A stretch of 63,076 nt of DNA, the filler included, from Folioceros fuciformis (Eukaryota): the NCBI GenBank assembly GCA_049999805.1. It is 5 parts of 4 records of this genome, joined end to end, with 100 filler letters (N's around TTAATTAATTAA, not from the genome) between each part and the next. Parts side by side here need not be neighbours in the genome. Positions count along the whole stretch, not along the records: positions 1 to 17,091 come from JBNGIO010006090.1; 4 more parts are not named here. The stretch is one strand, 5' to 3'. Made by a program: the position numbers and the translations under genes. Shown here one piece after another: positions 4,159 to 52,778 of this stretch. Numbering within the stretch: the stretch's first letter is position 1; every line of letters starts with the position of its first letter. The notes under the pieces were generated by a model, which was given only the letters and a program-made list of their open reading frames with translations, was not told the origin of the DNA and did no database searches.

Positions 4159-7100
4159 CTACACTAAAATTTTGTTTCTAACCTTTCCCCTCCCGCTTCC
4201 ACCTTTTCTCTTTTTTTCTGCCCACTCTTGATCATCGTCATCTTCTAGTTCGGCATCCCCATCGGTCTCAAGATCAGAAACAGCAACCAACGTACCATCT
4301 TTCCTTTTAGGGATCTTATGTAATGGGTGCCCAATACCTGTGCCACTAACCGCCTCACAATGGCCTGAGCGGAATCTCTTTTTTGAGCTGCTAACGGAGT
4401 AAACAGAGTAATCCGTTGCGTCTTCTTTCAGCAGCCGTTTGAAAGTCTGCACCGGCCAGGAACATAGGTTCAGAAAACGATATGTTACAAACGTTCACCA
4501 CCTACTTCACCACGATCAAATCCATGGTGTACCTGATACTGCTCCAACATTCCCCGAATTGTAGTTGGACACGCGATTGGAAGCTCTCGTGGGCTAAATT
4601 CCTTTATGTTCTCTTTCCTCTGAAGAGCCTCCCCAGTCTTCGCATGTTCAGTAGGCATAAATGCCTAAAGCATGTTTGCCCATCAGCCCATCAGCATCTA
4701 CACAAATTACAAGTGTGCAAGAACGGGCAAGATACAACATGAACATACTACTCCTTATAAGAAATTCATCAAAATTTAGTCACACCTGGCATCGAGCATC
4801 ATTCAGGCCGTAGACAATCTTTAAATGTCGTTTCAACCTTAGCAGCAAAGCTAGAGCAATTGCAGCACGACATTCCTCCTGAGCAACAATACACCAGTGT
4901 TTCAGCCCTCTCCATGCTCAGCTACAGTCTTCCATGAGTGGAAAGGAATGTTCGTGGATGTGTTATGACGGTCCTGGAGCTTCACCTTCAATTTTGCTAG
5001 AACTCCCTCCGAGATTTCTCCACTTTCCTCACCGACCACAACATTCCTTTTGCAGTCATGACTGCTCGTGTTGTAGTCATAAGCATCAACTCCTTCTTGT
5101 ACCCTTTCTGCAGCCATAGCAGCTAAGATTTTTTCTGCGACACTTCCAAGAGGTTCCTCTGAGATTGTTACCTTCAAACTCGACTCAAGAGCCCCACCCC
5201 TCACTTGCACAATGCGGTTTATTGACCAGATAACATAAAGCGGTTCTTCCGGCAGGCTAAATGGAAGTGAAGCTATTACTTCAGCGCAGTACCTGGCCAG
5301 ATCAGCAACAGTGTTGTGGTCACCTTTCCATTTCAAGTCCTACTCGAACAATCATTCCCAGCCCCGCCATCCCTTCAGGCTGGTGATGTGTGCCCAGACC
5401 AAAAACAAGCACAGAAAACACAACCAGGCACTTGACGATTGATATACAAGACATTCTTCAGTCAGCCCAAGCATTCTCAGCATTGCAAAATCACCATGCT
5501 TGCATAAGTTTGACCAAGGAAACAAATGGATCAGGCACTCTAAGACCTGCCCAAATAGTAGACCACAATTGAAAGGCTAGGGGGCTCACACTAGGAAGGG
5601 GATAAATGGTACACCAGTCGCCACAGAATCATATTTCCGAAGAACAGATCCAAGAAACTTATTCCTTGCAACTCGAGTGCTCCTTATGAGTTTGTAAATC
5701 CGTGCAATTCCAGCTTTTGCTGAGACTGCAGTACTGCAGTCTTCTTTCACCTTGGGGCGATGCTCCATGGAGCTCAAATCCTGTGTGGAAGCAGCAGCTC
5801 CAGACTGTATGAACGTGAATGACAACTGCAAACCATCGCCCAAACGAGATTCAAAAAAAGATGGGTACCTGCACCAGATGCACCAGCAATAGTTAGCATA
5901 CAGAAAACATACCAAACAATTGTCCAGATGAGGGGCATTACTTTTCGTTCATGTGGATCACAAGGCGATGTGCGAGCTTTGAGGTCGATTCTTGTTGATC
6001 CACCTCCAGTGCCACGAGTTGAGGAACGCAGGACATTGGATGAACTAGGCCCTGCCGAAGTACTATTTCCAACACCTGCGGAGACAATAAAACTTGTTGG
6101 GAACAAAAACACATACATAAATTCTGCAAATTATAGCTTCAGTCACTAAAATCATGAGTAAGAACATTGGCAACCAATGCAACCTTCAGTGCAGACAGCC
6201 GCACATCATAATTCATATCCAAACACCTCTCCAGAATAAGGTCCCAATGTAATTGGATAATTCCGCCACCAACATTACTATCTCCTGCGCCTGCTGCAAC
6301 TGGAACGATGTTGGATCTATCCTTGCCAGCTTCATGCGCACCCATTTGATCCTCGACATCAGACAGATAGTCACAAAAATTCCGTAGCGTTTGCAGCTGC
6401 ACATCAGAACCTCCATCAGGTTGTAGACAAGAGCACCTGCCTCCAATGTCAACAGCAAAGCCTACCTTAAGCCTAGATTCGGCAGAGGCACAAAGAGAGG
6501 CCTCCAAGATTTTCCCAATCTCTTTCTCCAACATAAAGCTAGGGCGAGCAATGAAGAAAACTCCGAGGGCCTTCCACCAGTCATATACCAAATTAAGAAA
6601 CTTGCCGGTCAACAAAAATTGTAGTTCCCCACTTGATAGAATGAATTACTCAGACCAGCAAAACAAATCACACTAAACCAAGCACCAGCTATCCTCTGGA
6701 TCTGCCCCAGTACAAATACCTGTAATGCCTTAGATTTCACATCAAACTCTGGTAACCGAAGGTAATCCTTCAAAAGGTCTAAAACTCGCTGCATGGAAAT
6801 CCCCTCTTGACTCATGCAATCCACCAAATCAGGGCAATAGCGAGAAAGCATGCCGAGGCAGTAAAGGCAGCGAAGAATGTTCTGCAGCAACCACCACCAA
6901 CCAATCAAGGGGATTCAATGTTCAATGCAGCTCATGGGAATAAGATAAGGCTGCACATGTAGCAGTGGGGTAACAGACCAAAAGAAAAATGAAAAACCTC
7001 CTCAGCAGCCAAATGCACTGATCCTCACCGCCTTCTCAGAGCCCAGAAATTGACCGCCACGTTTTCCATCCAAGACTCTGAAGAACCGTCGAACCAGGAA

Positions 7101-15610: not shown

Positions 15611-17091
15611 TGCAAGTGCGAGACAATCAGTAGGGTCTATGTTGTTGGATATGTAACCAGCAAGGGTTAATATGATGACCTAGTTATTTAGGGTTACAAG
15701 ACTTTATTTTGTATATAATACTTTTGCCCTTTATTGAATATACATCGCCTTTTGTTTATTGCTCGCTTGCTTAGCTACACAAACAAGGTATTTGCATATG
15801 GTATAAGAGCACCTTGATGGTGTCTGAATCCTTTGTATCTTGCAATGCCACGTGATCGTGGAGAACATGGAGTTTTGCGTGGTGATTCACGCTAGTGAAG
15901 GCACCAGCGTGAATCACACATTCCCCTACCCACTCCCAAACTGCCATGGACTGATGAGACACTTAATAATTATCGAGTTTTGATACGACAGTTTTGGAAG
16001 AGGCAATTGCAAGAACAAAGAAGGCTCCACAATTTGAAACGGGAGAAAAGAATAGATAGACATCAAGAAATTGAGGTTTGTGGAAGCCATTCAAAACAAG
16101 TGACCAAAAATCAGAAATAGAAGAAACCATCTATGTATCACTATTTAGATAATAAGAAATTGCGGTCTAATTTGGAGTTTCTTAATGATGCTATTTCAGA
16201 AGATTCTGATTCTGAATATCCTGATTATGAAGATATTCATTCTGTGGTGGAATTTCAATGTAATTGTATTGAGATACATGTAGCTCAATTGTGCACAAGA
16301 CAAGATATATTTCTAAAGGTTATGCATGAACAGGAGAAGCGCCTGCAACATGCACTTTCTTCCTTGAAGGAAGAATATTCTAGTCATTTGCAACGTATCA
16401 GCAATCAATTGTTAATTCTTCTTGGGGCTTCTAATCTACCTCCCCTTGAGAAATTGGAGGTAGAATCCCCATTCATCTCAGAAGAATCTAAATCTTCAAG
16501 GCATGATGGCGGGCAATCATGATCCAGTGATCAATTTCCACTGCACAAGGAGAGGAACCACAGTTAGGGATTGCACGGTGGATTGCTACATGTGCTCAAT
16601 TGCTCCAGCTTTGGGTAGTAGTTATGAAGAGACAGCTAGGGTTACCTGAACTCTATGACCTGTAGTTTAGCTTCACGTTCTGCTAAATCCCAATTGCTTC
16701 CTCTCCTTGTAACCCTAATTTGTAGTTTTCTTAGGTTTTGTTTCACATTTTACGCTTAGCAGTTCGACAGTTATTGTGTGACAATTTCTCAGCGATTCTC
16801 TTCACTCTCTAGCAATCTTCCAGGGTCCTCCTCAATCTCTCAACAAGGCTCTTCAGCTTGTTGTAGTCAGTTCGTCTCCTCTTCTCTCCTCAGCTCCCTC
16901 ACTTCTTCTCTTCTCAACTCACTCACTTTGACACCATATTCGAAACGCAGCCAACAGTTCAGGGAATAAGGGAAGGAGAAGTTCTCCTTCCACTCCGTGC
17001 TATGGGCAAATTCGTCCCCCTCTCCTCAGCTACGGACCACAGTCAGTCTTCTTCTCACACACTCACTCCTTCACCCTTCTCCTTCTTACAC
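15611..17091 (+). mobile_element. 5' end of a Ty1/copia element: LTR 15611-15796, Met-i PBS 15799-15810, extra ORF0, leader; truncated by gap
   Basis: TGCAA...TTGCA termini and PBS TGGTATAAGAGC. The LTR shares TTTAGGGTTACAA...TTGTATATAA with the LTRs at 24306 and 30940. Confidence 0.75.
15845..16522 (+). pseudogene. Extra ORF0 of copia element (~225 codons, three in-frame stops)
   Basis: MPRDRGEH...HIPLPTPKLPWTDETLNNYRVLIRQFWKRQLQEQRR... is in frame with ORF 16133-16522 (VMHEQEKRLQH). Homologous to 24492-25144. Confidence 0.7.
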
Positions 17092-17191
17092 NNNNNNNNN
17101 NNNNNNNNNNNNNNNNNNNNNNNNNNNNNNNNNNNTTAATTAATTAANNNNNNNNNNNNNNNNNNNNNNNNNNNNNNNNNNNNNNNNNNNN
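17092..17191. other. Assembly gap with artificial TTAATTAATTAA linker (also 24206-24305, 46579-46678, 60908-61007; plain 100-N gaps at 17734, 24803, 30229)
   Basis: Identical 44N + 12-mer + 44N structure in four places. The 12-mer gives stops in all six frames. Confidence 0.97.
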
Positions 17192-17833: not shown

Positions 17834-20587
17834 AATTCTCCTTTTTATTTGAGTTTAAGAGCCTTGTTATAGTGCTCTTACTTTTGGGATTCTGCATCTT
17901 GCTTCAACTAACTTGTTTTAACCTCCTTTGAGCATGGCGGGGGTGACATCTCAAGACATCTCAACAAAGACATCTCAACAGGAGCGTTGTCATGCCGAGG
18001 TCGGGCATCGAGGAGGCAAATGTGGTACAAAAGAACACTAACAAGTTGCTCTTATGGCACCAAAGGCTAGGACATCTTGGCGTTCAAAACATCAAGCTCA
18101 TGGATCGTAAGAAAATGGTGCAAGGACTCGATCTTGGTGAAGACGAAGACATTGGTGTTTGCAAAGGGTGTATTATGGGTAAGGAACACCGCCTTCCATT
18201 TCCAAAGCAAGGAAGTAGATCCAATCATTTGTTAGAGGTGGTGCATACAGACATCTGTGGTCCCATGAAGACCACATCCATAGGAGGTGCTAAGTATTTT
18301 CTTACCTTCACGGATGATAAGTCTAGATATACGAAGGTGTATTTTTTGAAATCCAAGGAGGCATGCTTCTCCAAATTCAAGGAGTACAAAGCATTGGTGG
18401 AGAACCAAATTGGGAGAAAGATCAAGAATCTACGAAGTGACAATGGAGGGGAGTACATGTCCAAGGAATTTGAGATGTTTTGCAAGGAGCACGGAATTGT
18501 TCATCAATTCTCAGCACCTTATAGTCCTCAACAAAACGGAGTTGCAGAACGCAAAAATAGAACTTTGGTAGAATGTGCAAGAAGTATGTTGCACCATGGA
18601 GGATTGGGATATGAGTTTTGGGGTGAGGCTATTGCAACTGCTGTGTATCTAACAAATAGGAGTGTGACTGCATCATTGGAGGGCATCACACCCGAAGAGT
18701 GTTGGACCGGAAGGAAGCCTTCCATTGCTCATTTGCATGTCTTTGGGTGCAAGGCATTTGTGCATAAGTCCAAGGAGATAAGAACCAAGTTGGAGGCAAA
18801 GTCAGTGGAGTGCATTTTTGTAGGTTATGACTTGGAGAGAAAAGCTTTTCGATTGTATGACAAGGGAGCGAAGCGTGTCATAATTAGTAGGGATATGATT
18901 TTTGAGGAAAATGGAGTTGCTATCACTAAGATTCCAAATGTGTCTATTGTGAATGATGATGATGACTTTACAGTGGCCCTAGAAGAAACAACAAGGGATG
19001 ATGCTTCTATTGAAGAGAACAAGGGGATTTCTGATGAAGGAGAAGTAGAGGAGCAAGCACAAAGGCAAGAAATGCCTCCACCAAAGAGGTATCCGACAAG
19101 GGAGCGACGGCCACCTAAGGATTGGAGAGAAGGACCAGAGTTTGCTTCCATTGCTATGACACACGGAAGGGAACCATTGACTGTGGCTGAAGCTCTACAA
19201 GGGAAGGATTGCGAGCACTGGAAAGAAGCCATGGATGAGGAGATGAGGTCCCTTGAAGGTAATGATACGTGGATGTTAACAACATGGCCCGCAGGGAGGA
19301 ATGCCATTGGGTGTAAATGGGTGTTCAGAATCAAGAGAAATGCAAGTGGGAAAATTGATAGATTCAAGGCTAGGTTGGTGGTGAAGGGATACTCCCAAGA
19401 GGAGGGCATTGACTACAATGAGACATTTGCACCAGTTGCCAAGTTTGCATCCATCAGAACCTTACTTACAGTGGGAGCAATGTATGATTTGGAGATTCAT
19501 CAAATGGATGTGAAAACAGCATTTCTAAATGGGGACTTGGAGGAAGACATTTACATGGAGCAACCCCAAGGCTATGTAGTTATGGGCAAGGAGAACATGG
19601 TTTGCAAATTGAAGAAAGCTCTTTATGGATTGAAGTAGGCTCCGAGAGTTTGGCATCAAAAGATTAACTCATATCTTTTGGAGCAGGGTTTTCGGCAATG
19701 CATATTAGATGAGAGCATCTCCATTTTTGAGGTCTCCCAAAGTAAGGTAATCTTAGCCATATATGTGGATGATCTTATCTTGTTGAGTCCATCTTTAAGC
19801 AGTATTGATAAAGTGAAGGAGATGTTGTCAAAGAAGTTTGAAATGAAGGACTTAGGGAACATCAACTATTGTCTTGGAATTGAAGTGTGGAAAGATAAGG
19901 CAGCACATATCATTAGGCTTGGTTAGCAAGGGTATGTTGAGGGATTATTGGAGCGATTTGGAATGATCAATTGCAAGCCTATTGGGACCCCTTAAGATTT
20001 AGGTGTGAAGTTGTGTAAGGTTGACTACTCATCAAATGATGGGGAGGAGCATGAGATGAGTAACATCCCATATAGGGCAGCAGTTGGTAGTTTGATGTAT
20101 GCCAGCCATGGTAGGAACACGTCCAGACATTGCAAAGGCAGTGGAAGTAGTGAGCCAATTTATGCAAAGCCCTGGAAAGCAACATTGGATTGCGGTGAAA
20201 AGGATCATGCAATACTTGAGGGGTACAAGTGATATGTGGTTGGAATTCTCTGGTGGAATCAAATGCCATAATATTATTGGGTATTGTGACTCCGATTGGG
20301 GAAGTGATCTTGATGATAGAAGATCAACTACAGGATATACTTTTATTTTAGGAGGAGGTGCCATTACCTGGAATAGTAAGAAGCAACCCACGGTGGCCAT
20401 ATCGACAGTTGAAGCTGAGTACATGGCATCCACACAAGCCACCAAGGAGGCCGTATGGTTGAGAAAGCTCATGGAGGAGATTGGTTATGAACAATTGCAT
20501 CCGACCACTCTTAGGAGCGATAGTCAAGGAAGTATGGCCTTGATCAAGAATCCAGTGCATCATGCAAGGACAAAGCATATTGACATT
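17834..20587 (+). mobile_element. Ty1/copia pol (GAG-pre-integrase, integrase, RT, RNase H) preceded by an LTR end; pseudogenised and interrupted at 20588
   Basis: LWHQRLGH..C..C, VHTDICGP, LRSDNGGEY, QQNGVAER, QMDVKTAFLNG, YVDDL, DSDWG, HARTKHIDI. Stops at 19636 and 19924, frameshift near 20103. Confidence 0.95.
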
Positions 20588-23500
20588 TGTTCGGACAGAA
20601 CCATGGCTTGGGTGCACAAGGAAGCAAAGCAAGTCTTATTCAGAATAATTAGATAATAATACATTAAGAAAGTTCATGTGTCCTAAATACTTCTATAAAG
20701 GCAACCTTACGTAAAGGTGTGTCTTTTGGTGATTAAAGAATAATTGGCTTTAACTAAACCCTAAGTCGGGCTAGCTTAAACCCTAATTCTAACACCCTCC
20801 CTTAAGCGCACGAGCTTAGAAAGGAATCAGAAGTACAGTCACAAGGAGCAGCTAATCTGAAGTTCATGTCACGTAAGCAATTATGTGTCAACCACCACAC
20901 TCGAGTGCATGCGAAGCCAGCCTGGATGACGATAAATGGAGCCTCAGCGCCGGGGCTGTCATCCTCACAAGCACACAAACCTGTGAGCGCGGGATTCAAG
21001 TGGCAAGCTTTCAGTGAAGACTGAGGGTTGGCTTCAGCGGATGGAGGTCACAGTGCAGCGCCTGATTGTGAAGCGAGAGGCGCGCAGAAGAGAAGAAAGA
21101 AGTAAGAAAACAATTATCCTGGATAAGTTCTGCTGTAGCTGTGCAGGGCGATTAGAACATCGTGGAGCTTCATCCACCTGTCTGCAAGATTGCTTGCATC
21201 TGCACGCCACACGTAGGTCTTGGATCCTTGTGTGACTGTAACAGAACTGATACCCTTCCTGTCCATGTACTGCAGCTCCTGAAGTGTCATAGGAACAGAG
21301 AGGTGTAATCCAGATCATCACTGAACACCAAGGTACCCAGATCTCACCCATAAGCTGATCATCACGGCTATGTTGCAGCCTTAAAATATTGTTGATAATT
21401 GAATAGGCCGAGACCTTCCATATGCTTGACGTGCTTGTCTTTCGGCAAAGCTTTGGTTAGGATGTCCGCTGTGTTATCATCTGTGGGCACATAGAGAATT
21501 TTAACTACCCCCCTCTCAGCGGCATCTCTAACGTAATGGTGGTGGACTTCGATGTGTTTAGTGCGGGCGTGGAAACGAGGATTCACCACCAGGGCTATCG
21601 CAGACTGGTTATCACACCAGAGGGGAGTAGGTCCTGTTTGTGATTCCCCAATATCTTGTAAGAAAGCACGCTCCCACTGAACCTCTTTCGTGGCATCTGT
21701 TAAAGACTTGTACTCGGCCTCAGTGCTAGAGAGGGCAATACTCGTCTGTTTTTTACAGCTCCAGTTGACAGCAGCCTGAGAAAGTAGAAAAACATATGTG
21801 GAAAGGCTTTTCCGGGAGTCACTATCAGAGGCCCAGTCCGCGTCTGTGAACCCCTTCAGAGTTAAGTTTCCTGTTCCATGGCGTTTATAACAGAGGCCGA
21901 TATGATGAGTGCCTTTCAAGTAACGAAATATTCGTTTGACAGCAGTCCAGTGAGCAGGCCCAGGGTTTTCTAAAAATTGAGAAACAGTACTAACTGAGTG
22001 CTGTATATCAGGGCGGGTCCAGTTGCTGACAAAAATCAAACTGCCTACAGCGTGTCGGTAAGGAACATCTTGCATATCCTTTTGATCAGCTTCTGTAAGA
22101 GCACACTCATATCTAGTGAGCTTGGCACCTACTGCACCTGGAGTGGTAGCTGGGTGTGCAGAGCTCATGTGGAACTTGTGAAGAATTTCAGCTATGTATT
22201 TATGCTGGTGAATGATAAGGAGTCCTTCAGAGCGAACGCGAAGTACTTGAATTCCTAGACAGAACAGTAGATCCCCACTATCTGTCATCTCGAAGGTTTG
22301 CCTTAACATATCTTTGACTGTGACCAGCATAGAGGTGTCATTAGCAGCAAGGATTACATCGTCGACATACAGTGCAAGAATCACGTAAGTATTTCCCTCC
22401 TGCAGGACATAGACATTAGAGTCCGCTGTACACTGTCGAAACCCTAGTGCCTTTAGAGCTTTATCACAACGTTTGTACCAGCGTTCTGCACTTTGCTTTA
22501 AACCATATATGCATTTAATAAGCTGACATACATATTCTGGATGTGCAGGGTCCTCATAACCCTCCGGCTGTTCCATGTACAGCTCCTCTTCTAAAATGCC
22601 ATGCAAGAAAGCTGTGCAGACGTCCATCTGCTGCAGCTCTAGGTCATACTCTGCAGCTAAGGCGAATATCAGACGGAGTGACTGGGCACGTACTACAGGA
22701 GAAAATGTCTCCTGATAATCAAGTCCTGCCACTTGTGTAAAGCCTCTAGCACAGAGTCGTGCTTTGTATCTTGCAATTTTCCCTTCAGCATTGAGTTTAT
22801 GTTTAAAAACCCATTTGCACGTGATTGGTTTACGGTTTGGAGGTTTGGGAACTAATTTCCATGTGCCATTTTTGATCAGGCTGTTGTATTCATTATCCAC
22901 AGCGATTTTCCATTTATCCTTATCAGGTCCTGTAAAAGCTTCTGTAAGGCTGATAGGCTCAAGAGGAACATGTGGAGAGACTACAACAGCACCTGCTGTA
23001 TGGCGGAAGTCTATAGATTGATAGCGTGGTTCTTTCCATTCTGAGGGTGGGGGCTGGTGCCGAGAAGACCTACGTGGTCCTGCATCATCTGCTAAAGGGG
23101 CTGGAGCCACCAAGGGTTCAGCAACAGCATTTGGATCCTCAGCAGCTAGACCAGGTAAGTTACTCGCCTCATCATGGCCTACGCCTTGTCCATCTTCTTC
23201 AAAAAGAAGGTCAGGGAACAAATCATGGTCATCCTCGTTATGGTGTCTGAAGTCCAGGTCATCTGGGCCTAACATGTTGGCCTCATCTACTGCAGGTGCT
23301 AGAGGTTTGTCTTGATCACGTTGAATATCCTCAACATCTGGTAGGAGTGTTGGATTCTGTAAATTTGGAGCAACATCCAGATCGCCTGGAGGATCAGCCA
23401 CATTACCAACAGCAGGCATGGCACCATCAGCATCATCAGGGTAAAAGGAAAACAGTCCAGCAGGTTCATCTAAGTCATTTGAACTATCAGCAGGCTCTGG

Positions 23501-24205
23501 CAAAGGTCTGGCCTTTCGGTCAATAGGCTGTAAAGGCTCAACAAAGATAACACTTCGGGCTAAAACCAGCTGCCTTGAATGTGGATCTAGAAGCTTATAT
23601 GCTTTTACATGTTCACTGTACCCAATAAGTGTGAGACACCGAGAACGATTGTCTAACTTCCTGCGTTTTTCTGCAGGAATATAAGCATAGGCTTTAGACC
23701 CAAAAACCCTGAGATGTAGGAGACTAGGTTTTTGTTTCCAGGTAAGCTCAAAAGGTGTGGCAAAGACAAGGGACCTAGTTGGCAATCTGTTCAAGATATA
23801 TGTGGCAGTGACTATAGCTTCAGCCCAGTAAGAAGAAGGTAAGCCAGACCACAACAACATAGCCCTGGTCATACCCATCAGCGTTTGGTTTTTACGTTCA
23901 GCAACACCATTCTGTTGCTGAGTGTATGGAACTATTAATTGATGGATGATGCCTTGTTCTGCCAGAAAACTGGTGAAAGAATGGTTGACAAATTCAGTCC
24001 CATTATCCGACCGGAAGACCTTCAATAGAAGACCTGTTTGTCGTTGAACCAAGAGCAACCAGTCCTGGAACAAGGTAAAGGTTTCACTTTTGCGCTTCAT
24101 AGGAAAAATCCAAGTGTATCGACTAAAATCATCTGTAATGCTGAAATAATATTCTGCCCCTCCAAGTGATGGAACCTGAAGACGGCCAGAAATGTCACAG
24201 TGAAC
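20588..24205 (-). mobile_element. Young Ty1/copia element nested in the previous one; 3' LTR 20588-20794 with adjacent PPT; 5' part lost in gap
   Basis: Minus strand reads PPT AAGGGAGGG, then TGTTAG...CCGAACA. The insertion cuts the host RNase H just after KHIDI. Confidence 0.9.
21368..24205 (-). CDS. Copia pol, uninterrupted integrase-RT-RNase H reading frame (>910 aa), open up to the gap
   Basis: VHCDISG...DDFSR, RSDNGTEF, QQNGVAER, QMDVCTAFLHG, YVDDV, DADWA, HARTKHIEV, ADILTK, with no stops. Confidence 0.93.
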   Translation of the reverse strand, partial: VHCDISGRLQVPSLGGAEYYFSITDDFSRYTWIFPMKRKSETFTLFQDWLLLVQRQTGLLLKVFRSDNGTEFVNHSFTSFLAEQGIIHQLIVPYTQQQNGVAERKNQTLMGMTRAMLLWSGLPSSYWAEAIVTATYILNRLPTRSLVFATPFELTWKQKPSLLHLRVFGSKAYAYIPAEKRRKLDNRSRCLTLIGYSEHVKAYKLLDPHSRQLVLARSVIFVEPLQPIDRKARPLPEPADSSNDLDEPAGLFSFYPDDADGAMPAVGNVADPPGDLDVAPNLQNPTLLPDVEDIQRDQDKPLAPAVDEANMLGPDDLDFRHHNEDDHDLFPDLLFEEDGQGVGHDEASNLPGLAAEDPNAVAEPLVAPAPLADDAGPRRSSRHQPPPSEWKEPRYQSIDFRHTAGAVVVSPHVPLEPISLTEAFTGPDKDKWKIAVDNEYNSLIKNGTWKLVPKPPNRKPITCKWVFKHKLNAEGKIARYKARLCARGFTQVAGLDYQETFSPVVRAQSLRLIFALAAEYDLELQQMDVCTAFLHGILEEELYMEQPEGYEDPAHPEYVCQLIKCIYGLKQSAERWYKRCDKALKALGFRQCTADSNVYVLQEGNTYVILALYVDDVILAANDTSMLVTVKDMLRQTFEMTDSGDLLFCLGIQVLRVRSEGLLIIHQHKYIAEILHKFHMSSAHPATTPGAVGAKLTRYECALTEADQKDMQDVPYRHAVGSLIFVSNWTRPDIQHSVSTVSQFLENPGPAHWTAVKRIFRYLKGTHHIGLCYKRHGTGNLTLKGFTDADWASDSDSRKSLSTYVFLLSQAAVNWSCKKQTSIALSSTEAEYKSLTDATKEVQWERAFLQDIGESQTGPTPLWCDNQSAIALVVNPRFHARTKHIEVHHHYVRDAAERGVVKILYVPTDDNTADILTKALPKDKHVKHMEGLGLFNYQQYFKAAT

Positions 24206-24491
24206 NNNNNNNNNNNNNNNNNNNNNNNNNNNNNNNNNNNNNNNNNNNNTTAATTAATTAANNNNNNNNNNNNNNNNNNNNNNNNNNNNNNNNNNNNNNN
24301 NNNNNTAATCCTAGCTACTTTAGGGTTACAAACTATTATTTGTATATAACTCTTTTTGCTCCATTATTGAAGATGCTTTTTGCCTTATTATCAACTACTT
24401 GCCTTTGCATGTTAGTTTACTTAGCTAGGTGCATGAGGCCTATTATTTACATAGTATCAGAGCTTGATGCCTAATCTTTGTTGCTTGTGCA

Positions 24492-25144
24492 ATGCCTTGT
24501 AGAAGGGAATCCCATATATTACCTACCTCTTGTGAGGTATTTCCATGCAATCACAGAGGAGCGCATGGATTCCCCCAACACGCAATGGACCTTGGAATCA
24601 ATATCTTGATGAGTATCGTACCCAAATCCGTGCACATTGGAAGAGGCAAGCACAAGAACAAAGACAATATTGCAATCAGCTGAGAGATTGCAAAGGGGAG
24701 TCATCATGCTCTCATCCTGCTGAAAATTCTAGATTACAGTCGAATTCTAGACTTATGAGAACTCGAAGGGATTCATCCATTTATGACACTTTGCAAAATT
24801 CCNNNNNNNNNNNNNNNNNNNNNNNNNNNNNNNNNNNNNNNNNNNNNNNNNNNNNNNNNNNNNNNNNNNNNNNNNNNNNNNNNNNNNNNNNNNNNNNNNN
24901 NNGATTAATTATCACTATGGCAGACTTGATGTTTGAATTTCTCAATTGATTGCAAGAGAAGATCTCTTTCTTACATGACATGGAGAAGAGATTGCAACAT
25001 GACATGAATCAATGCAGCAAGGATATCAGTGATGGTGTGTCTGCTACTCAGCACTTAATCCAATTGTTTATTCAACATTCAGATGTGAAGAAATTACAAA
25101 AATTGGGCCAATCAAGACAGAGCCTTGAAGAGATTGCTCTATAA
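24492..25144 (+). pseudogene. Second copy of copia ORF0 (frameshift, gap, stop)
   Basis: tgcaATGCCT start 28 nt after the PBS; WIPPTRNGPWNQYLDEYRTQIRAHWKRQAQEQRQ and LHDMEKRLQH. Confidence 0.7.
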
Positions 25145-25446
25145 CTTCCGCTATGCGCAGAAGGGGGGGACATTTCAGTGGTGCGTAGTGCTTGGGCGCT
25201 CACTACTGTCATGCTGGAGCAAGGGATTGACTGATTTTGCTGAGATCTGAAGCAATTCATTCAATTTCTTCCTTGCTGCCAATTGGTAGTTAAAACGGTT
25301 ATTTGGCTCCTACCCTGCCATCAGAAAAATCCCATGAACACTTTTGTTAGTTTTTTAGGGCACGTTTTCCAGAACTTAGGATAGTTTCCTAATTAGAGCA
25401 CCTTTCACATTCATTTATACATTCACATTAGATATGAATGGTACAA

Positions 25447-26055
25447 TAGGTAGGCACCAATCCTTCACTTGGAAGGGCCCCAATACCTCCCCTACCAATC
25501 GCATTCCTACCAATCCTGCAACACGTCCCATTAGTAGGTAGGCACCATTCCTTCACTTGGAAGGGCCCCAGTACCTCCCCTACCGATTTCTACCTTCCAA
25601 TCACGTTCCTACCAATCCTACAACACATCCCGTCAGTAGGTAGGCACCATTCCTTCACTTGGAAGGGCCCTAGTACCTCCCCTACCGATTTCTACCTCCC
25701 TACACTCAATACCTTTTCCTCACAAGGCTCCCTACAACACCTTCCTCTACCCACAATCTAGCTGCTCGTCTCCCTATGCCCAGCAACCAACAAGTTTTCC
25801 TCCAAGCCTACTCCGCTCCCTCCAACTCTGTTTATTGTTTGCAGACGACATTCAACCTTTCCCAGCGCGTACCTTCAACACGTCCAGTCGGTAGGAAGGC
25901 ACCATTCCTTCACTTGGAAGGGCCCCAGTACCTTCCCCTACCGATTTCTACCTCCCTACACCCAACACCCCTTCCTCACAAGTCTGCTCACAACACCTTC
26001 CACAACAATCCAGCTGCTCATCTCCCTACGTCCAACGACCAACAAGTTTTTCCTT
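25447..26055. repeat. Four imperfect direct repeats of TAGGTAGGCACCATTCCTTCACTTGGAAGGGCCCCAGTACCTCCCCTACC
   Basis: Copies begin near 25447, 25535, 25637 and 25892. The last two share a longer downstream duplication. Confidence 0.85.
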
Positions 26056-29000
26056 GGGCCGGTTGCTACATGCTTGCGCTTGTTAGCGAGAACTCCCAGG
26101 AAGTCTTTCTCTAGAGTCTACCCTCAAGCCAACAGCCACATAGGTATTGCCACACACCTACAACAGCACACCAACCATTCACAAGGGAAGCAACTTGCAG
26201 GGGTGCCCATGGAAGAATATGAGCCCTCCGCCAAGCACTTCGACCACTGCAACTCTAGCCACAACCAGGCGCTGTGATGGCACACAGTCGGCAACAAGAT
26301 TCCTACGCTCTGCTGAGCATGAGAACTCGCCATGAGAAGAGTGCAGAATGTGGTGGTTCATTTCTTTGTGTAGCCCCTCCTTATAGGAAAGATCGACACA
26401 TGAACCCTCTCCTACAAGTAGGTGGTGGGCTACCCTTCTCTCGCCCTAGGCGCCACCAACTTTAACTGCACACACCTACTAAGAGGCTAAGTCCTACCAA
26501 TAATTGCTAGGGCAGTGCGTGCCAATGAAGATTAGGTCTGTCGGTGCCACCATAGAAGATTCGTTGACCCCCTTTTTCAAAAAGGTATGGCTAGGATGGC
26601 TCCTGAAGGGAGGCAGAGTCTGAAGGCTGAGCCACTGGGCCCCCCTCCATTATTGGGATTCGTCTTCTTTTGGATCCACGAGCTTCCACCGTACCTTCTC
26701 TGTGTGGATCTCTTGGGCTATCCCTTCACCACCACCTACAAGTTTAGTAGGGGAGGGTTCCCTTTGTTTCTCAACTTGAGGCTCCTTCCCTACGTAGGGT
26801 GGGAATGTTCCCCCCGTAGGTAGGGTACCTATTGCTCCCTTCGTAGGTAGGGTCCCTACCATTCCTTCCCCTCCTCTCGTAGGTAGGTTGCCTACCATTC
26901 CCACCCATTGTCGTAGGTAAACAGCCTGCCCCATTGCCATAGGTGGGGTGTCTACTGTATAAGTACCTTCGCTACCTACGTAGGTATCTTCCATTTTCCC
27001 ACGTAGGTACTCTCTCTACGTATGTAGGTAGACATCGTACTATGTAGGTATCTTCTTATTCTAACCTACCAGAATAGAACTAAAAAAAACTCCATAACAA
27101 CCTTCACTAGCCACTCACTACCTATTATGGGCACTTGCCCAGAAACCTACCTTCCACATGCTTCCCTTCGAACTATTCTGAACAAAAAGAAACCAAGTTA
27201 GACTTTCCTAGACCGATTACCAAACTTTTCCGTTCCACAGGAGCACAATATTACTTTACCCTTACTGATGACTACAGCAAATGTATATAGACATACCCTA
27301 TGGAGCATAAGAGTGACACCTTTCTTTTCTTTCAAGATTGGTTGCTGGTTGTTCAAAGGCAGATTGGTCGTATGTTGAAGTTGTTCCACACCGACAATGG
27401 AGGGGAATTCACGAGCTTCGCCTTTGAGCATTTCTTGGAGACACGAGGCATTATCCATCAGCTAATAGTTCTATACACGCAACAACAAAATGGCGTTGCG
27501 GAAAGAAAGAATCAGACGCTGATGGAGATGACGCAATCTATGCTTTTGTGGTCTGGATTTCCTAATCCTTTCTGGGCTGAAGCTGTAGTCACGGCTACCT
27601 ACATATTGAATCGTCTTACGTCTCATTCTGTTTCTAGTGGCACACCTTTTCAACTATTTTGGAATCGAAAGCCGAGTATTTCACACCTACGTATTTTTGC
27701 TTCTCGCACTTTCGCTCATGTGCCTGCAGAGAAAAGACGTAAGCTTGATAATCGTTCAAGACGATTGATTTTTGTAGGCTACAATGAAGTGACTAAGGGC
27801 TATAAACTTTTGGACACTGAAACAATGCAGCCGGTGGTAGCTTGGAGTGTTACCTTTATTGAGAATTTGATTCCTTTATCAGATGATTCCTCCCTTTTAC
27901 CTGGAACAAAGAAGGATCCCGTTAGTAAGGTGTATTATGAAAATTCAGGTGATTACCCAGATGATGCAGACGGTGAGTCAGATGCAGGTATTTTTTTTCC
28001 ACCTGCTTCTAATCCCGTTATCCCTCTAGCTCTTCAGCCCTTGACTTTAGCACCTGCACAACCAGTCATCCCTGCACCACCAGCTGATGCCCCACAGGAT
28101 GAAGGACCTGTAAACCTTGAAAATGAAAATCATGAAAACCCAGACAATATCGTAGACTCAGAACCTGAACTTGACAGTTCTTCTCAAGATTCTAATTCTA
28201 CTAATGAGAATGGCCCTTTACCTATCCCAGTTAATGCTCCAGAACCGATTCTTCGATCTACCCGTGTGCATCGTTCTCCATCCGAATGGATAGACCCTCG
28301 TTATACCTCCATCGACTTTCATAAGTCAGTGGGAGTTTGCACACCTGCTGTTCACAATGCCTCCTTGCCAGTCATTCCTCCTGAACCTGTCACCCTCAAA
28401 GAAGCATTTTCAGGTCTAGATAATGACAAGTGGAGACATGTAGTGGACGATGAGTTTAACAGTCTCGTACAAAATGGTACCTGGAAACTTGTTCCTCGCT
28501 CAAAGGGCCGTAAACCCATAACCTGCAAATGGGTATTTAAGCATAAATTAGATGCTAGCGACAATATAGCAAGATACAAAGCAAGTCTTTGTGCACGTGG
28601 ATTCACACAAATACTTGGTCTGGATTTTCAAGAGACTTTCTCTGTAGTGGTACGCTCTCTGACTAGTCAATTCGTCTTATGCTCGCCTTAGCTGCTGAGA
28701 GTGATCTAGAGCTGCAGCAGATGGATGTGAAGACGGCTTTCTTACATAAAATTATGGAGGAAGAACTGTATATGGAGCAGCTCGAAGGCTACGAAGACTC
28801 TGAGCATCCAGATTATGTATGTCAGCTCATTAAATGCATATACAGTCTTAAAAAAAGTGCAGAACGCTAGAATGCAAGGCTGGATACCTGTCTCAAGGGC
28901 CTGGGATTTTGCCAGAGTCCTGCTGATCCCTCTGTTTACATTTATGATGACGACACCTCATATGTTCTGCTCGTTGTTTACATTGATGATGCAATATTTG

Positions 29001-31599
29001 ATGGCAATGATACATGTCTGTAAGCAAGAGTACAAGACATGTTGCGAACTGAGTTTGAAATGACAAATGTAGGGGACCTGAAATTTTGTCTTGGTATTCA
29101 GGTGTTGAGGGTACGTGAAGAAGGCCTGATAATTATTCATCAGCGCAAGTATATTTCAGAAATCCTTCAACGTTTTAACATGGCTAATGCACATCCTGCA
29201 AATACATCTTGTGCTAGTGGAGTAAAACCGACCAAGGCTGATTGCCCTATCTCTAACCAGGACATGGCTGCTATGAAAGAAGTTCCCTACCGTCATGCAG
29301 CTGGCAGTTTGTTATTTGTGAGCAACTATACCCGGCCAGATATCACATATGCTATTAATACAGCCTCTCAATTCTTGGAATGTCCTAGTCGTAATCACTG
29401 GACTGCCATCAAACGAGTATTTCGTTACTTGAAAGGAACACATCACTATGGCTTACGCTACAGGAGGATAGGGGTAACACCTACCTTGTCAGCCTTTTCC
29501 GACACTAACTGGGCGTCCGATGGGGATACACGTAAGAGCTTATCAACATATGTATTCTTCTTACCCTCTGCAGATGTCACCTGGAGTTGTAAGAAACAAA
29601 GCAGCATAGCCCTTTCAAGTACTGAAGCTGAATACAAATGCCTTATCGATGCTGCGAAAGAAGCTGAATGGGCACATTCTTTCCTCTCCTCAGTTCACTA
29701 CGAACAGGCATCACCCACTATGCTATACTGTGATAACCAATTTGCCCTAGCCCTTTTAGAGCGTCCTAGGTTTCATGCCAGGACGAAGCACATAGAAATC
29801 GCACACCACTATGTAAGGGAAGTCAAGGCTAGGGGAATCATCAATCCTGTCCACATCCACATTGATGAAAATACTGCTGATGGTCCTCACTAAACCTTTG
29901 TCTAAACAAAAACATCAGACACACGTCGAGGGGTTAGGCCTCATAGATTTTTCTCAATACTTTACTGCATGATGACAATCTTACATGGCAGCGAGACTCA
30001 CAGGGCTCCCAACAAACCTAGCATTTCTTCTGTGAGCCTAAGTTTTGATTTCACTATATGCTTATAACTGCACAAGATACATAGACAAACACCTATCAGA
30101 CTCCATCTTCATACTCGATTTTGGACTGTCACCCTCTTGCATGTTTAGTTCAGTTTTAGTGGGAGCAGGATCAGCCAAATGTTTTCCATGTGTCCAGCGG
30201 ATGAAGCTACACACTACTCTAATCCTGTNNNNNNNNNNNNNNNNNNNNNNNNNNNNNNNNNNNNNNNNNNNNNNNNNNNNNNNNNNNNNNNNNNNNNNNN
30301 NNNNNNNNNNNNNNNNNNNNNNNNNNNNGCACCTACCTCTAGAACGATGCGCGTCTCACCTTCTTTGGCGCGTACAGTCCACAAGCCTCCAGCACCTTCA
30401 GCACTTCCCTATACTCCTCCACACTTAGCTCTCGGTCGTCGTCCCTTATCTTCACACTCGTTTCAACTTGCAGCTTGAGTTGGGCACCGCGCGCCTGTGC
30501 CTCCTCCAACAACCTGATTAGCTCCTTGCACTCCTCCTCAGCCCTGGCAAGATTGATCAACACATGCCTATGGGCCGTGGTTGACCAGATCTTCTGTGAA
30601 GCCGCAGATTTGCTGGAGTCGCGAGACTCCTCTTCTTGTTTTCTGCTCCTCTGCAGGCACCTCTGACTGGAGATTTCTTGCTTCAAAGGTTGTACCTTGT
30701 CTGCAGAGAGTTAGAGGATCTATGGTGCTGCAAGGGAGGTGTGAAGATCGCGACTTCCAGCTGCAGCAGTGACAATACGGGTTAGGTTACAGGCAGCCTC
30801 CTTATTTCGGTGCCACCTTCGCATAACGGAGAACGGATAACGGATAACGGATAACATATAACGGAACGGAGAACCTTATCCATTTGCGGATAAAGTTTAA
30901 ATAGCTTTTTTAATTTAACCCGTCGAGCTTAAGTGGGAGTGTTAGAAAAAATAACCATCGAGGGTTAATTAATCCTAGCTACTTTAGGGTTACAAACTAT
31001 TATTTGTATATAACTCCTTTTGCTCCATTATTGAAGATGCTTTTTGCCTTGTTATCAACTACTTGCCTTTGCATGCTAGTTTACTTAGCTAGGTGCATGA
31101 GGTCTATTATTTACAATGGTCATCCTTAATATTATTTGTAGAAGTTATAGCTTCATCTACTTGTTGTAGGATAGGAACTATTTGCTCATACAGCTCATGA
31201 AGAGGTGTAAATTGTAAAAGTTCAATTTCAAGAGAAACAAGATCATCACTATGGTTAGAATAAGCTGAGGGAATGGTATTGTGATCAATCATATCAAACT
31301 AAGAGATAAGAGGTAAATTGTCTTCACTCTCTTTAGTATATGTGATGACTCTATCAACAACTGCCATTGATCTAAAGTTATGTTCATTGAAAGTTACACT
31401 TCTTGCATATGATATCTTGTTCTTTGATACATCATACATTATGTGCTCGATTACCCTAGGCTACATTCACACAATAACTTCACCACCATACCAAAGCATA
31501 CCCTTTTAGGAAGTTGCCAACAATACCTAACTAGTGCTTAGGCTCAAGGCTAGATGAGGCAAGATAGCTTTCAATAGAGTAAATCTAGGAATCAATAGC

Positions 31600-42566: not shown

Positions 42567-42815
42567 GGCATTGCACCATGGTGGGGGGGGTATTGAGAGA
42601 CTCCCAAGTGGCATTGCACCATGGTGGGGGGGTATTGAGACTCCCAAGTGGCATTGCACCATGGTGGGAGGTATTGAGAGACTCCCAAGTGGCATTGCAT
42701 CTTGGTGGGGGGGTACTGAGAGACTCCCAAGTGGCATTGCACCATGGTGGGGGGTATTGAGAGACTCCCAAGTGGCATTGCATCATGGTGGGGGTTTATT
42801 GAGAGACTCCCAAGG
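42567..42815. repeat. Minisatellite, six ~41-bp units GGCATTGCACCATGGTG(G)nTATTGAGAGACTCCCAAGT
   Basis: Directly visible tandem units. Degenerate ~60-bp repeats follow to about 43070. Confidence 0.95.
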
Positions 42816-49031: not shown

Positions 49032-49830
49032 CGACCACAGCCCCTCAAATGGTTGAGGACCAACACCAAGTTGAGTGGCAAGCTCGCATGGTGGGCCATG
49101 ATCTTGCAGGACTATGAGTTCCAAGTTGTCCACCGACCAGGGGTTATGCACAAGAAAGCTGACACTCTCTCCCAAAATCCTCGTGCCAGTTGCGAGGATG
49201 TCACGGAGGCCAAGCAGCACGTTGATGAGAGTGAAGTGCAGCACCCATCAGTCTTAGCGACGCTAGCCTGAACGTGCTTCGGTGACAATGTCAAGTGTGG
49301 GGCAATCTCGAGTATGGTGGAGCTCTAGCAAACCAAGGGGCAATTGTCACCCCTGGAAACCTACGTTGGGGACAAGCGGCCTAAGGACATTTTGGAGGAC
49401 CCTGACACTCTCCTGTTCATACAGATAGAACAATTGAATCCTACCATGGACGTAGTGGAACGAGAGCGAGTGAGGCAACGAGCAGCTCTTCACTACTGGC
49501 GAGATGGTTATCTCCTTCAGAAGTTGCCCAATGGGTTGGAGTGCATTGTCCCACCTCGGGATGATCGTGAGCGATTGATTCACCGAGTGCACAATGACAT
49601 GGGCCATTTCGAGGTCAAGCGTACCTACAGCTTGCTTCTACCACATTTGCACTGCATGGGATGTATAGTCAAGCAATAGGTGGCTTGTTGCTAGGAGTGT
49701 GACACGGTTAAGACATCCTTCACCATTCAGAACCCACAGCTTCACCCCTTGCTAATCATGGGATTGTTTTTCAAGTGCTCTTGTGATTTGCTGGGTGAAC
49801 TACCCAAGACACCACGTGGGAATGTGTATA
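49032..49830 (+). pseudogene. Ty3/gypsy pol fragment: RNase H end, integrase HHCC and start of core
   Basis: DH.PLKWL..KLAWWAMILQDYEFQVVHRPG..ADTLS, then RVHNDMGHF..RTYSLL, then LHPLLIMG..DLLGELPKTTRGNVY. The RH-before-INT order indicates Ty3/gypsy. Confidence 0.85.
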
Positions 49831-52778
49831 TGAAAAATATATACTAAGTATTTATGTAACCTAGGCGTATTAGGTTCATTGGATTTATACTATTTAAACT
49901 ACACTTGACTCTTTATTTGGGTGCTTATTGTTGTTTGTTAATATAGTATTCCGGCTACTCGCTTTCTCTCGCTCTTTTTGCCATCGCACCATGTCAAGCT
50001 TTCTTGACTCAAACCCAGCACCTTTAGTTTTCATATGATATCAGAGCAATTGCGTTGGTGAACATGCTATAGTTGCAATGCCGAGAAATAAATCAAATTG
50101 TGGATTCGGTGGTAGAGGAGGATTTGTGAAGACCTTCTCAAGGCCAGGTTTTCTCAAGACCTCCTCGCGCATTCCAACAAGCATCCCTTGCATTGGGGTT
50201 GAGATAAAGACTGAACGTGACCAATTGATCCTGGAGAATTATTGGCGATCTCAATGCCGCAATACGTCACATGAAAAATCTACACAAACTGCCACAACAT
50301 ACACTTGTACCAGTTGTGGACGACTATTCAAACAAGATCATTGTTCAGCAAACCCGCCTGTGAGGCGACCTCTCTCGGCACCGCAATTATGCATGGAGAC
50401 AGCCATTATGTCTGCAAACACATTGCAGGATATTCAGTATGAGATACACAATTTAGAAGGAATCCTAAATAGTGTTGTCCATGAACAACAATCTTTTTCT
50501 AAGAGGTTGGATTCAATAGACTTTAAAATTCATAAACTATTTGTTAGATTTTCCTTTGAAATTGAAGGATTGACCAAGCAATTGCAAATGTTGAACATCA
50601 CATCATGGTCCTCTGAGGAGAAGTGGTCAGATTGATCTAACTTGTTTTTCAGGCATGGTGATGGTTCAGGGCTTTCTAGCCTAAGTGCGTTGCTACCCCT
50701 TTTCCTACTTCTGTTGGCTTAGCATCGGCAGTTGGTAACCGTTTTCCTCAAGCCATCCATGCCCTAGAAAAGAAGTCAACAGGTTAGTTGATCTTTTTCT
50801 AGTTTTGCTGAAAGCCAAATGAAACCCTAAAAAGAGTTTTCTTTAGATAACCGTTTACCTGTTTGGTAGTGGGTTTGCATTTATGTATTTTTGCTAGAGA
50901 CTACCTCTTTAGCTTCCCTTTATACATACAATCCACCACTTATTCCTCCTTATCCTACCTCCTATACAACCAGTTCCACCTGTCAGTATGGCTGCTTCTA
51001 CCTTTATAGCAGAATTGAAAAACCAAGACATTCAATGGAACGAAATTTGAAATATGGCGTGTACATATGATGACCACTCTGCGTGCAAGAGGAGTTGTGG
51101 ATGGATCTTACATGGAACCAATCCTTCCTGCAGCTGGAGCAACTGCAACTATTGTAACACAATTTGATGTTGACACATGGAACTCAGTCAATAGTGTTGT
51201 TCTTGCTCTCTTGGTCCACGAGCTTGATGAAGTACTCATTCCAAATGTGGAATCCCTGACCAAAGCCCAAGACGTTTGGAATCAGCTCACTAATGCATAT
51301 GCTGTTAAGACGATGCTTACCAAGTGTGTTGCACAGCAGGAGTTCTTTACTTTGAAGATGTGGGAGGGTGATAGTGTGGCTACCCACACAAGCAAATTTC
51401 GTCATCTTGGCTCCCGCCTTTCTTAGTTGAACACCAAAATGACTGAAGAGGATGCTATTTCTAAGCTCCTACTTAGTCTTCCTGTATCATACCAAACTTT
51501 TGTATCACTGCAAAATGGGCCACTTGCTATAGCTGGTTAGAACGTGGCAGCTGGAACTCTAGGCAAACTTACCTTGGAGAATGTGATATCTGCGTTGTAC
51601 CAAGAAGAGCATAGTCGACTTCAACACAATCCAGGTGGCTCATAAAAAGTTCGCATAGATAGAGTTCTCTACACCTCACGCTAGTATGGAGGTTCTTGGA
51701 GAGGGGCTGCCACAAAAAGAAGGCAGGTGAGCCCTGTCGTCCCAAGCCAGAGGTTAACACAGTTGCGAAAGAAAGATCTCAAAATGAGAATGGAAAAGCT
51801 GTGGTCAAGATTTTCACCATCTATCTCTCCTCATCATCAAGTGCTCCTACAACCTAGTACCTAGATTCTGGTGCAACTGCAAACATTTGCAAAGACAAAA
51901 AACTGTTTAGCAGTTTCAAGGAAGTTTCCGACTCCAATCAAGCTATCTTGCTGGGCGACAAACGGCGTTCAATGAGCTTACCCATCCAGGGATATGGTGG
52001 TACTTGTCGTTTTCTCATGGCTGATAATTCAGTGCTGCATGTGCCAGACATACTTTATGTACTTGGAATGGCTAAGAATTTGTTGTCCGTTCGACTCCTG
52101 GCAATCCACCACAACCTGGAGTTTCGCTTTTATGGGATAACTTGTGAAGTCTTCAGGCGTACCTCCAATGAATAGTGCATTGGTTGTGGAGTCCCTAACT
52201 CGGAGCTTTACTAACTGGATGTGACTTGTGAAGTTCCTACTAAAGCCGTTGTTATCACATCATCTTCTCTAGCACATTTGCCTGCAAGTGAACAGGCAAA
52301 GTTGTGGCATGCTCGTCTTGGACATGTCAACAAGAATTTATTAATAAAAATGTTTGCTCAAGATTGTTATGCAGAACCATTACCTTCATGTTTCAAAGAC
52401 TTGCCAATTTGCGAGGCCTGCCTTTTGGCGAAGCAGAAAGAGAAGCCTTTTCCACACCATGCCTTCAGAACTTCATGCATCCTTAATTTGGTTCACGCTG
52501 ACATATCTAGTAAACTGCAAACACAATCCTTAGGAGGAGCTTAGTACTACCTTAGAGTAACTGATGACTTCAGTTGTCTTACTTGGACGTATACCATGTT
52601 CTATAAGAGTGATATCTTCACATGTTTCAAGGAATGGATGCTCATGGCCCAAAGGCAATCAAGCTATTTACTCAAATGTTTGCGAACTGACAATGGAACT
52701 GAACTCTGCAACCATACCTTTGATGATTTCCTCCACGAAAATGGGATCCTTCATCAACTCACCGTTGTGGATACATGA
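49831..52778 (+). mobile_element. Ty1/copia element inserted in the gypsy integrase: LTR 49831-50033, PBS 50036-50047, ORF0, degenerate gag (from 50988), protease, integrase; 3' truncated
   Basis: TGAAAA...TTTTCA termini, PBS TGATATCAGAGC, FNGTKFEIWR gag, YLDSGAT protease near 51860, LWHARLGH, LRTDNGTE. Confidence 0.9.
50078..50635 (+). CDS. Intact 185-aa ORF0 between PBS and gag, function unknown (CxxC, C-terminal predicted coiled coil)
   Basis: tgcaATGCCGAGA start 30 nt after the PBS and open to a stop. Weak similarity to the other ORF0 copies (IP..YWRSQ, VVHEQ..KRL). Confidence 0.65.
   Translation: MPRNKSNCGFGGRGGFVKTFSRPGFLKTSSRIPTSIPCIGVEIKTERDQLILENYWRSQCRNTSHEKSTQTATTYTCTSCGRLFKQDHCSANPPVRRPLSAPQLCMETAIMSANTLQDIQYEIHNLEGILNSVVHEQQSFSKRLDSIDFKIHKLFVRFSFEIEGLTKQLQMLNITSWSSEEKWSD

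Follow-up and report, generated by a model that had tools for sequence, protein, structure and literature searches.

Ty1/copia retrotransposons are seen as uniform in structure, each having a single gag-pol frame, and a 63 kb stretch of DNA from Folioceros fuciformis (here called the window) raises the question of whether one of their lineages carries, or once carried, a further gene between gag and the primer binding site (PBS). A preliminary description of the window had proposed such a gene, open reading frame 0 (ORF0), in three elements with short long terminal repeats (LTRs), which we number copies 1, 2 and 3 in their order along the window. Our reading is that ORF0 is, or was in active ancestors, probably a protein-coding sense cistron of its own, lying between the PBS and gag of a short-LTR Ty1/copia lineage. 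The observation is real but was overstated: one copy of the frame is intact and two are relics, homology was found for two copies and the gag context for one. ORF0 is a lead from three decayed copies, not an established family, and the evidence for it is thin.

The window consists of contigs chained by linkers (44 N, TTAATTAATTAA, 44 N), together with plain gaps of 100 N; pieces lying side by side in it are not necessarily neighbours in the genome.

A frame behind the primer binding site

The sequence TGGTATCAGAGC, which we take to be the initiator-Met PBS consensus, occurs with at most one mismatch at three sites in the window (15799, 24452 and 50036, all on the plus strand) against 0.27 expected, and none of 100 shuffles reached three. 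Each of these sites, with its single mismatch, directly follows a 5' LTR. The start motif TGCAATGCC lies 34, 28 and 30 nucleotides (nt) past the PBS ends of copies 1, 2 and 3 (at 15841, 24488 and 50074), and on this point, as on the shortness of the LTRs (157, 176 and about 211 bp), the preliminary description was accurate. Read as TGCA-ATG-CC, the conserved start encodes Met-Pro in all three copies. The motif is found nine times in the window against 0.96 expected; the remaining six occurrences belong to an unrelated tandem array on the minus strand (42567-42782), whose period is about 41-43 nt. A short upstream ATG is also present in every leader, between the PBS and ORF0 (15814-15852, 24467-24502, 50063-50071): in copies 1 and 2 its frame runs for 12 and 11 codons and crosses the ORF0 ATG in a different frame, whereas in copy 3 it runs for two codons and ends 6 nt ahead of the ORF0 ATG. 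The window contains no tRNA gene against which pairing of the start motif with the primer tRNA could be checked. A metagenome scan for the PBS, a spacer and TGCAATGCC in succession returned a single match, on a contig with bacterial-looking genes, which was rejected as due to chance.

The frame that opens at this start is intact solely in copy 3, being broken in the other two. The preliminary description had reported it as open at 15845-16522 in copy 1; it is not, stops being present at codons 17, 18 and 92. In copy 2 the frame shifts after 15 codons, and its length comes to about 215 codons with the gap included. Counts of stops set the frame apart from its alternatives: copy 1 has three in 225 codons, where its five alternative frames have 10-26 and the shuffle mean is 15.8, and copy 3 has none in 185 codons, against 5-16 in the other frames; for neither copy was any of 2000 shuffles as low. 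The two pieces of copy 2 hold no stop and one stop, values as low being reached by 7 and 28 of 2000 shuffles respectively. No further copy of ORF0 was found elsewhere in the window. Few contigs from the sequencing runs cover the ORF0 region of copy 2; one run, presumed by guess to be RNA, gave three contigs on copy 2, none of them over ORF0.

Copies 1 and 2 are related at the protein level. The peptides quoted in the preliminary description are present, and the two copies align in two blocks (blastp E 1e-9, with 29 of 67 residues identical, and E 3e-4, with 12 of 48); as DNA they are nearly unalignable, with one 28-nt match in common. Pairing the two ORF0 frames gives the best local score, 96, other frames reaching 57, 56, 37, 35 and 34; for the C-terminal block the comparison is 66 against 41. 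Over the 45 codons of the N-terminal block, identity at the first, second and third codon positions is 0.53, 0.67 and 0.49, and the proportions of nonsynonymous (pN) and synonymous (pS) differences are 0.35 and 0.80, the latter saturated. The pattern looks like long-term purifying selection on the protein, in blocks that are short and were chosen by protein similarity.

Copy 3 has in common with copies 1 and 2 the nine-base start, a Met-Pro-Arg/Cys N-terminus, its position and a similar length, and several short motifs occur in it in the same order as in the other two: I-P, W-K/R-x-Q, H-E/D-Q/M..K-R-L and, near the end, S-x-E-E. We treat the copy 3 frame as the positional and architectural equivalent of the copy 1 and 2 ORF0 and as a possible homologue.

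The end of the frame and its predicted product

In all three copies ORF0 stops within about 10 codons of the S-x-E-E motif. It is followed by spacers of 569, 314 and 352 nt in copies 1, 2 and 3, which have 5-8 stops in every frame; pyrimidines make up 60-61 % of the spacers of copies 1 and 3 as against 46-48 % of ORF0. In copy 3 a pyrimidine tract and CAG (50984-50986) lie immediately 5' of the gag ATG, which is itself ~16 codons upstream of the DUF4219/Retrotran_gag_2 match, the two being separated by a frame break of 1 nt located in an A-run; an unrelated copia gag at 46163 starts 26 codons ahead of its motif. There is no continuous frame from the ORF0 ATG into the gag of copy 3, where ORF0 ends at the stop at 50633-50635 and gag is in another frame. 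The matching end point, the stop-filled spacer and the apparent ATG of gag's own in copy 3 therefore argue that ORF0 is a separate cistron and not the N-terminus of gag. Separateness from the polyprotein frame was seen in three of three copies, all of them decayed, and is no proof for active elements.

The location between PBS and gag, which the preliminary description gave for the lineage, is visible in copy 3 alone. In copy 1 no gag was detected by Pfam or tblastn up to the contig end at 17091, and from copy 2 gag, protease and the integrase N-terminus are missing. A gag start read by eye directly after copy 1 ORF0 (16503-16660) was dropped, being unsupported by Pfam or tblastn.

Structure prediction, which the preliminary description had suggested together with a Foldseek search, gave a long helix. 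In the AlphaFold2 model of copy 3, made from a tiny alignment, residues 1-41 are disordered, with a predicted local distance difference test score (pLDDT) under 50; a weak helix (46-65) and a hairpin over CxxC..HC are also present, and residues 101-183 form a single helix (block mean pLDDT 82-98). The model of the C-terminal 133 amino acids (aa) of copy 1 has a helix over residues 36-103 (block mean pLDDT 84-98). Heptad a/d positions of the helices are 60-67 % hydrophobic, compared with 31-33 % elsewhere. Both N-terminal halves carry a net positive charge, +11 across 90 residues for copy 1 and +8 for copy 3, and the basic half of copy 3 includes a GGRGG stretch as well as the CxxC..HC hairpin. 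The ORF0 product is thus predicted to have an N-terminal half that is basic and disordered, and a single long amphipathic helix spanning 70-80 residues.

No Pfam family matched ORF0 at E 0.01, including the plant mobile domain (PF10536), Athila ORF-1 and the L1 domain Transposase_22; at E up to 10 the matches were scattered and sub-threshold, the best being E2F_CC-MB (E 0.00093), whose 19.7 bits fall short of the cut-off of 33.9. Word-seeded searches were likewise without a significant match, among 23 candidates of near length for copy 3 ORF0, 95 of near length for copy 1 read through with X, and 3834 longer proteins for the alignment of copies 1 and 2. Such blanks are weak evidence of absence, because the collections searched may hold few plant transposon proteins. 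The best match in a sequence search of the PDB had E 0.29, and Foldseek against the PDB and BFVD gave nothing at E 0.001 or better, a one-helix model being ill-suited to such a search. The preliminary description had itself named a spliced gag N-terminus or a catalogued domain as what ORF0 might prove to be; the separate end, the stops in the spacer and the lack of a Pfam match point away from both. Its proposal of an undescribed accessory protein family is borne out in so far as ORF0 is a discrete frame with no Pfam family and no relative in the collections searched, and falls short in that copy 3 showed no significant similarity to the other two. The roles it suggested, in anti-silencing, targeting or the particle, gained no support from the analysis.

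Weighing the explanations

If ORF0 is a cistron in its own right, no long frame would precede it on the full-length RNA, given that the LTR contains a TATA-like box and is under 220 bp, and its protein would be the first product translated from that RNA. The basic half of the protein may bind nucleic acid and the long helix may allow it to self-associate; the predicted architecture would suit a small accessory factor, RNA-binding or particle-associated. In copy 3 there are 14 ATGs from the ORF0 start to the gag ATG, so leaky scanning to gag is unlikely and gag-pol would need another translation route, for which splicing onto the CAG before the gag ATG and internal entry on the pyrimidine-rich spacer are candidates. 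L1 ORF1p and the caulimovirus virion-associated protein combine a coiled-coil-type helix with a basic region and are encoded upstream of capsid or polymerase genes, a layout like that predicted for ORF0. They differ from it in the order of basic part and helix, and searches by sequence, Pfam and fold gave no match; any analogy would be functional only. That ORF0 should be all of these things together is a tentative proposal that we consider rather unlikely as a whole: an uncatalogued accessory gene in a Ty1/copia lineage of a non-model streptophyte, standing as the first cistron, with a product that is basic and disordered, has a coiled coil, binds the RNA of the element and forms oligomers, and has converged on L1 ORF1p or the caulimovirus protein, gag-pol being expressed off that RNA through splicing or internal entry.

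Several points weigh against a cistron of its own. There are three copies only, two of them broken. An upstream cistron of 185-225 codons should strongly impede translation of gag, and the gag ATG of copy 3 was read by eye across a frame break. In the C-terminal block of copies 1 and 2 (48 codons) pN is 0.54 and pS 0.69, and both blocks used for these values, merely 45 and 48 codons long, were picked by protein alignability. LTR identity between copies 1 and 2 is 77 % over ungapped columns, as against about 56 % nucleotide identity in the best ORF0 block; ORF0 therefore evolves fast, and the LTR has strongly conserved signals. A confident lone helix is a generic outcome of AlphaFold2 with 3-4 sequences, and phmmer found 0 matches to copy 3 ORF0 among 1.84 billion representatives. 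Finally, none of three comparisons showed a significant similarity of copy 3 to the other two copies: blastp returned E 0.26 and 0.66, the frame test scored 38 in frame and 40 out of it, and the hhalign probability was 0.23 %. Of the conservation across three elements first described, that between copies 1 and 2 was found at the protein level.

The failure of these three comparisons is what two unrelated acquisitions would produce, copies 1 and 2 sharing one ORF0 family while copy 3 gained its frame independently or de novo behind the same conserved start. The LTR of copy 3 is indeed remote, at 54-58 % over all columns, from those of copies 1 and 2, and in plant LTR elements the proteins of extra ORFs are reported to be strongly heterogeneous even inside one lineage (PMC6317226). 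Yet the copies agree in nine-base start, Met-Pro-Arg/Cys, position, length, end motif and predicted build, their short motifs are collinear, and the global alignment of copies 1 and 3 scores above shuffles (z 4.9-5.8; 0-1 of 500), a score that may reflect a mere shared composition gradient. Separate acquisition is on this balance possible, though we doubt it. With all three copies decayed, ORF0 might also be the N-terminal part of Gag, continuous with gag or spliced to it in working elements, the stops and spacer having arisen by decay: no good ATG precedes its own on the transcript, and the pyrimidine tract and CAG before copy 3 gag make splicing conceivable. It is hard to see on these terms why three elements otherwise almost unalignable should have an equivalent end point, or why 5-8 stops should have collected in every frame of the next 314-569 nt and 0-3 in ORF0; the gag-type ATG of copy 3, moreover, stands at the usual distance from DUF4219, as comparison with the gag at 46163 indicates. 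We regard a Gag origin as quite improbable.

Rapid divergence and the lack of relatives and of a recognisable domain would equally fit a long upstream frame whose act of translation brakes gag-pol, or a functionless, lineage-specific frame that is simply tolerated. Downstream initiation must drop behind so many ATGs, and the short upstream ATG in each leader is in keeping with such a role. A pure brake, however, needs no 200 codons kept open, and against both versions stand the amino-acid conservation of copies 1 and 2, which is best in the ORF0 frame, and the conserved charge layout and long amphipathic helix; we find either version improbable. That open frames arose by chance in an AT-poor leader is scarcely credible: the small copy number and nothing else speaks for it, and it is contradicted by the 0 of 2000 shuffles for copies 1 and 3, the start motif in three of three elements and the E of 1e-9 between copies 1 and 2. 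A cistron of its own is the explanation we retain.

Host elements, neighbouring features and known additional frames

Several copia-type retrotransposon fragments are present in the window by Pfam search (Table 1). Domains follow the copia order in copy 3 (Retrotran_gag_2/DUF4219, Pol_BBD, gag_pre-integrs) and copy 2 (rve, SH3_retrovirus, RVT_2); the copy 1 contig is without pol. Copy 2 has a direct LTR pair (146 nt at 97 % identity), and in copies 1 and 3 only the 5' LTR is visible because of contig end or truncation. In their 5' part the LTRs of copies 1 and 2 are ~85 % identical across roughly 100 nt. In their LTRs a plant-telomere-like TTTAGGG(TT) stands upstream of TGTATATAA (15687, 30983), and the LTR of a minus-strand element at 20588-24205 begins similarly, TGTTAGAA..TTAGGGTTT (about 20760-20790, minus); the TTTAGGG(TT)/TGTATATAA stretch may be a conserved promoter element.

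Table 1. Coordinates of the three elements and of other features in the window.
Feature	Position	Strand	Remarks
Copy 1 5' LTR	15640..15796	+	157 bp, TG..CA; boundary inferred by alignment to copy 2 LTR; TTTAGGG motif and TGTATATAA inside
Copy 1 PBS	15799..15810	+	iMet type, 1 mismatch
Copy 1 ORF0 relic	15845..16522	+	225 codons, one frame, stops at codons 17, 18, 92, no frameshift
Copy 1 spacer	16523..17091	+	569 nt, 7 stops in each frame, 61 % pyrimidine
Copy 2 5' LTR	24306..24451	+	5' side lost at contig start; 97 % identity to 30970-31115
Copy 2 PBS	24452..24463	+	1 mismatch
Copy 2 ORF0 relic	24492..25141	+	ATG 24492; frame change near 24536-24545; 100-N gap 24803-24902; internal stop 24947-24949; final stop 25139-25141
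Copy 2 high-copy repeat	25456..27295	+	at expected place of gag, protease, integrase N-terminus
Copy 2 integrase core, reverse transcriptase, RNase H	27240..30428	+	rve, SH3_retrovirus, RVT_2
Copy 2 3' LTR	30940..31115	+	176 bp
Copy 3 5' LTR	49823..50033	+	about 211 bp, boundary inferred; no 3' LTR within window
Copy 3 PBS	50036..50047	+	1 mismatch
Copy 3 ORF0	50078..50635	+	intact, 185 aa and stop
Copy 3 spacer	50636..50987	+	352 nt, 5-7 stops per frame, 60 % pyrimidine
Copy 3 gag	50988..51423	+	ATG 50988 inferred; DUF4219 and Retrotran_gag_2 matches from 51019
Copy 3 protease (Pol_BBD) and integrase N-terminus (gag_pre-integrs)	51858..52541	+	frame differs from gag; element cut off beyond
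Nipped-B region	4905-5948	minus	
Nup98-Nup96 region	35135-41013		
Ariadne-type region	54088-57104	minus	
eIF2D region	58157-60349		
TEX47-like region	61009-61725	minus	
Linkers between parts	17092-17191, 24206-24305, 46579-46678, 60908-61007		

The repeat lying in copy 2 where gag should be has internal direct repeats of 102 nt and about 255 nt. Contigs of three DNA runs cover it at 20-100x the depth of the rest of copy 2, and it is therefore a separate high-copy sequence; tblastn found no gag or protease remnant inside it. On 24306-31200 one run, X3, shows C>T at 310 and G>A at 363 places as against 8-78 for other kinds of difference, with all listed G read as A across 24469-24494. Because of this large excess the run looks like bisulfite-treated DNA, and it could yield methylation data for these elements.

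The pol of the copia fragment at 20588-24205 (minus) is 49-62 % identical to that of copy 2, which places the two in the same broad lineage. About 570 nt separate its pol stop from the polypurine tract, including a 105-aa ORF (21034-21351), and its 5' end is beyond the contig break at 24206-24305. A further copia fragment, at 17947-20656 (plus), is more remote (32-41 %). Host genes in the window include Nup98 fused to Nup96, in which one stretch of 966 codons is open, an RBR E3 ligase of Ariadne type, whose nearest Atlas clusters are mainly Streptophyta, eIF2D, a TEX47-like gene and Nipped-B. TEX47 together with a fused Nup98-96 would suit an alga or a plant whose sperm are motile.

We read ORF0 as a variant, in a copia host, of the additional ORFs that form a known class among LTR retrotransposons. 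An additional ORF counts as conserved in a family when it is in all or most copies (PMC7264820). The survey of Neumann et al. (PMC6317226) took in solely ORFs of 250 codons or more, and reports such extra ORFs in 582 Ty1/copia elements. These are essentially the 3' ORFs of SIRE, where 3' forward ORFs are present in 74 % of elements (PMC6317226, supplementary table); extra ORFs amount to a few per cent for Bianca (5 and 2 %) and for Ikeros (4 and 6 %), in columns of supplementary table 5 that are indistinguishable, and for the other copia lineages, including Bryco, Lyco, Gymco, Osser and all non-seed-plant lineages, the survey gives none. For 5' forward ORFs the supplementary table has 33 % in Tekay, 23 % in TatII and 21 % in Ogre. 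Upstream of the polyprotein and on the same strand, copy 3 ORF0 has the position by which the survey defines its eORF-5'F class; at 185-225 codons ORF0 is below the 250-codon limit in that definition, and because of this threshold such a frame would escape the survey. The preliminary description had extra 5' ORFs as typical of Ogre, which is correct as far as it goes; Tekay chromoviruses have them too, and the 582 Ty1/copia elements have extra ORFs (PMC11728184, PMC6317226).

The Tekay 5' additional ORFs (the 5'aORF of sunflower Tekay and, in rice, ORF0 of Retrosat-2 and those of RIRE3 and RIRE8) lie, like the ORF0 described here, in sense between the 5' LTR/PBS and gag, Retrosat-2 ORF0 being an ORF of this type (PMC11728184, PMC3485330). 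Their proteins are conserved within a family and unrelated between species, mostly disordered, with few helices and with nuclear localisation signals (PMC11728184). The two kinds of product are alike in being domain-free and largely disordered, with few confident helices, basic or bearing a nuclear localisation signal, and fast-diverging (PMC11728184, PMC3485330). Tekay differs in belonging to Ty3/gypsy and in its long LTRs and larger ORFs (about 400 aa in sunflower), and the likeness is one of description. ORF1 of Ogre, in the Tat lineage, is likewise a lineage-typical forward ORF 5' of gag (eORF-5'F in 21 %); Ogre differs as a very large Ty3/gypsy element, 57 % of whose extra ORFs have a plant mobile domain (PMC6317226), for which ORF0 has no Pfam match. 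The extra ORFs of SIRE, Bianca and Ikeros share with ORF0 the superfamily and encode heterogeneous, domain-free proteins, those of SIRE differing in lying 3' of pol (PMC6317226). No paper describing a copia 5' frame like ORF0 was found in a search of open-access papers.

If ORF0 is the cistron we take it for, a conserved 5' cistron would be a new gene position for the Ty1/copia superfamily, and the translation of gag downstream of a 200-codon ORF would call for an explanation. Small accessory genes would then seem to be overlooked by surveys that start at 250 codons. On the fuller proposal above, with an RNA-binding product, copia elements would no longer count as uniformly single-ORF and would offer a compact system in which to study gene gain by LTR elements.

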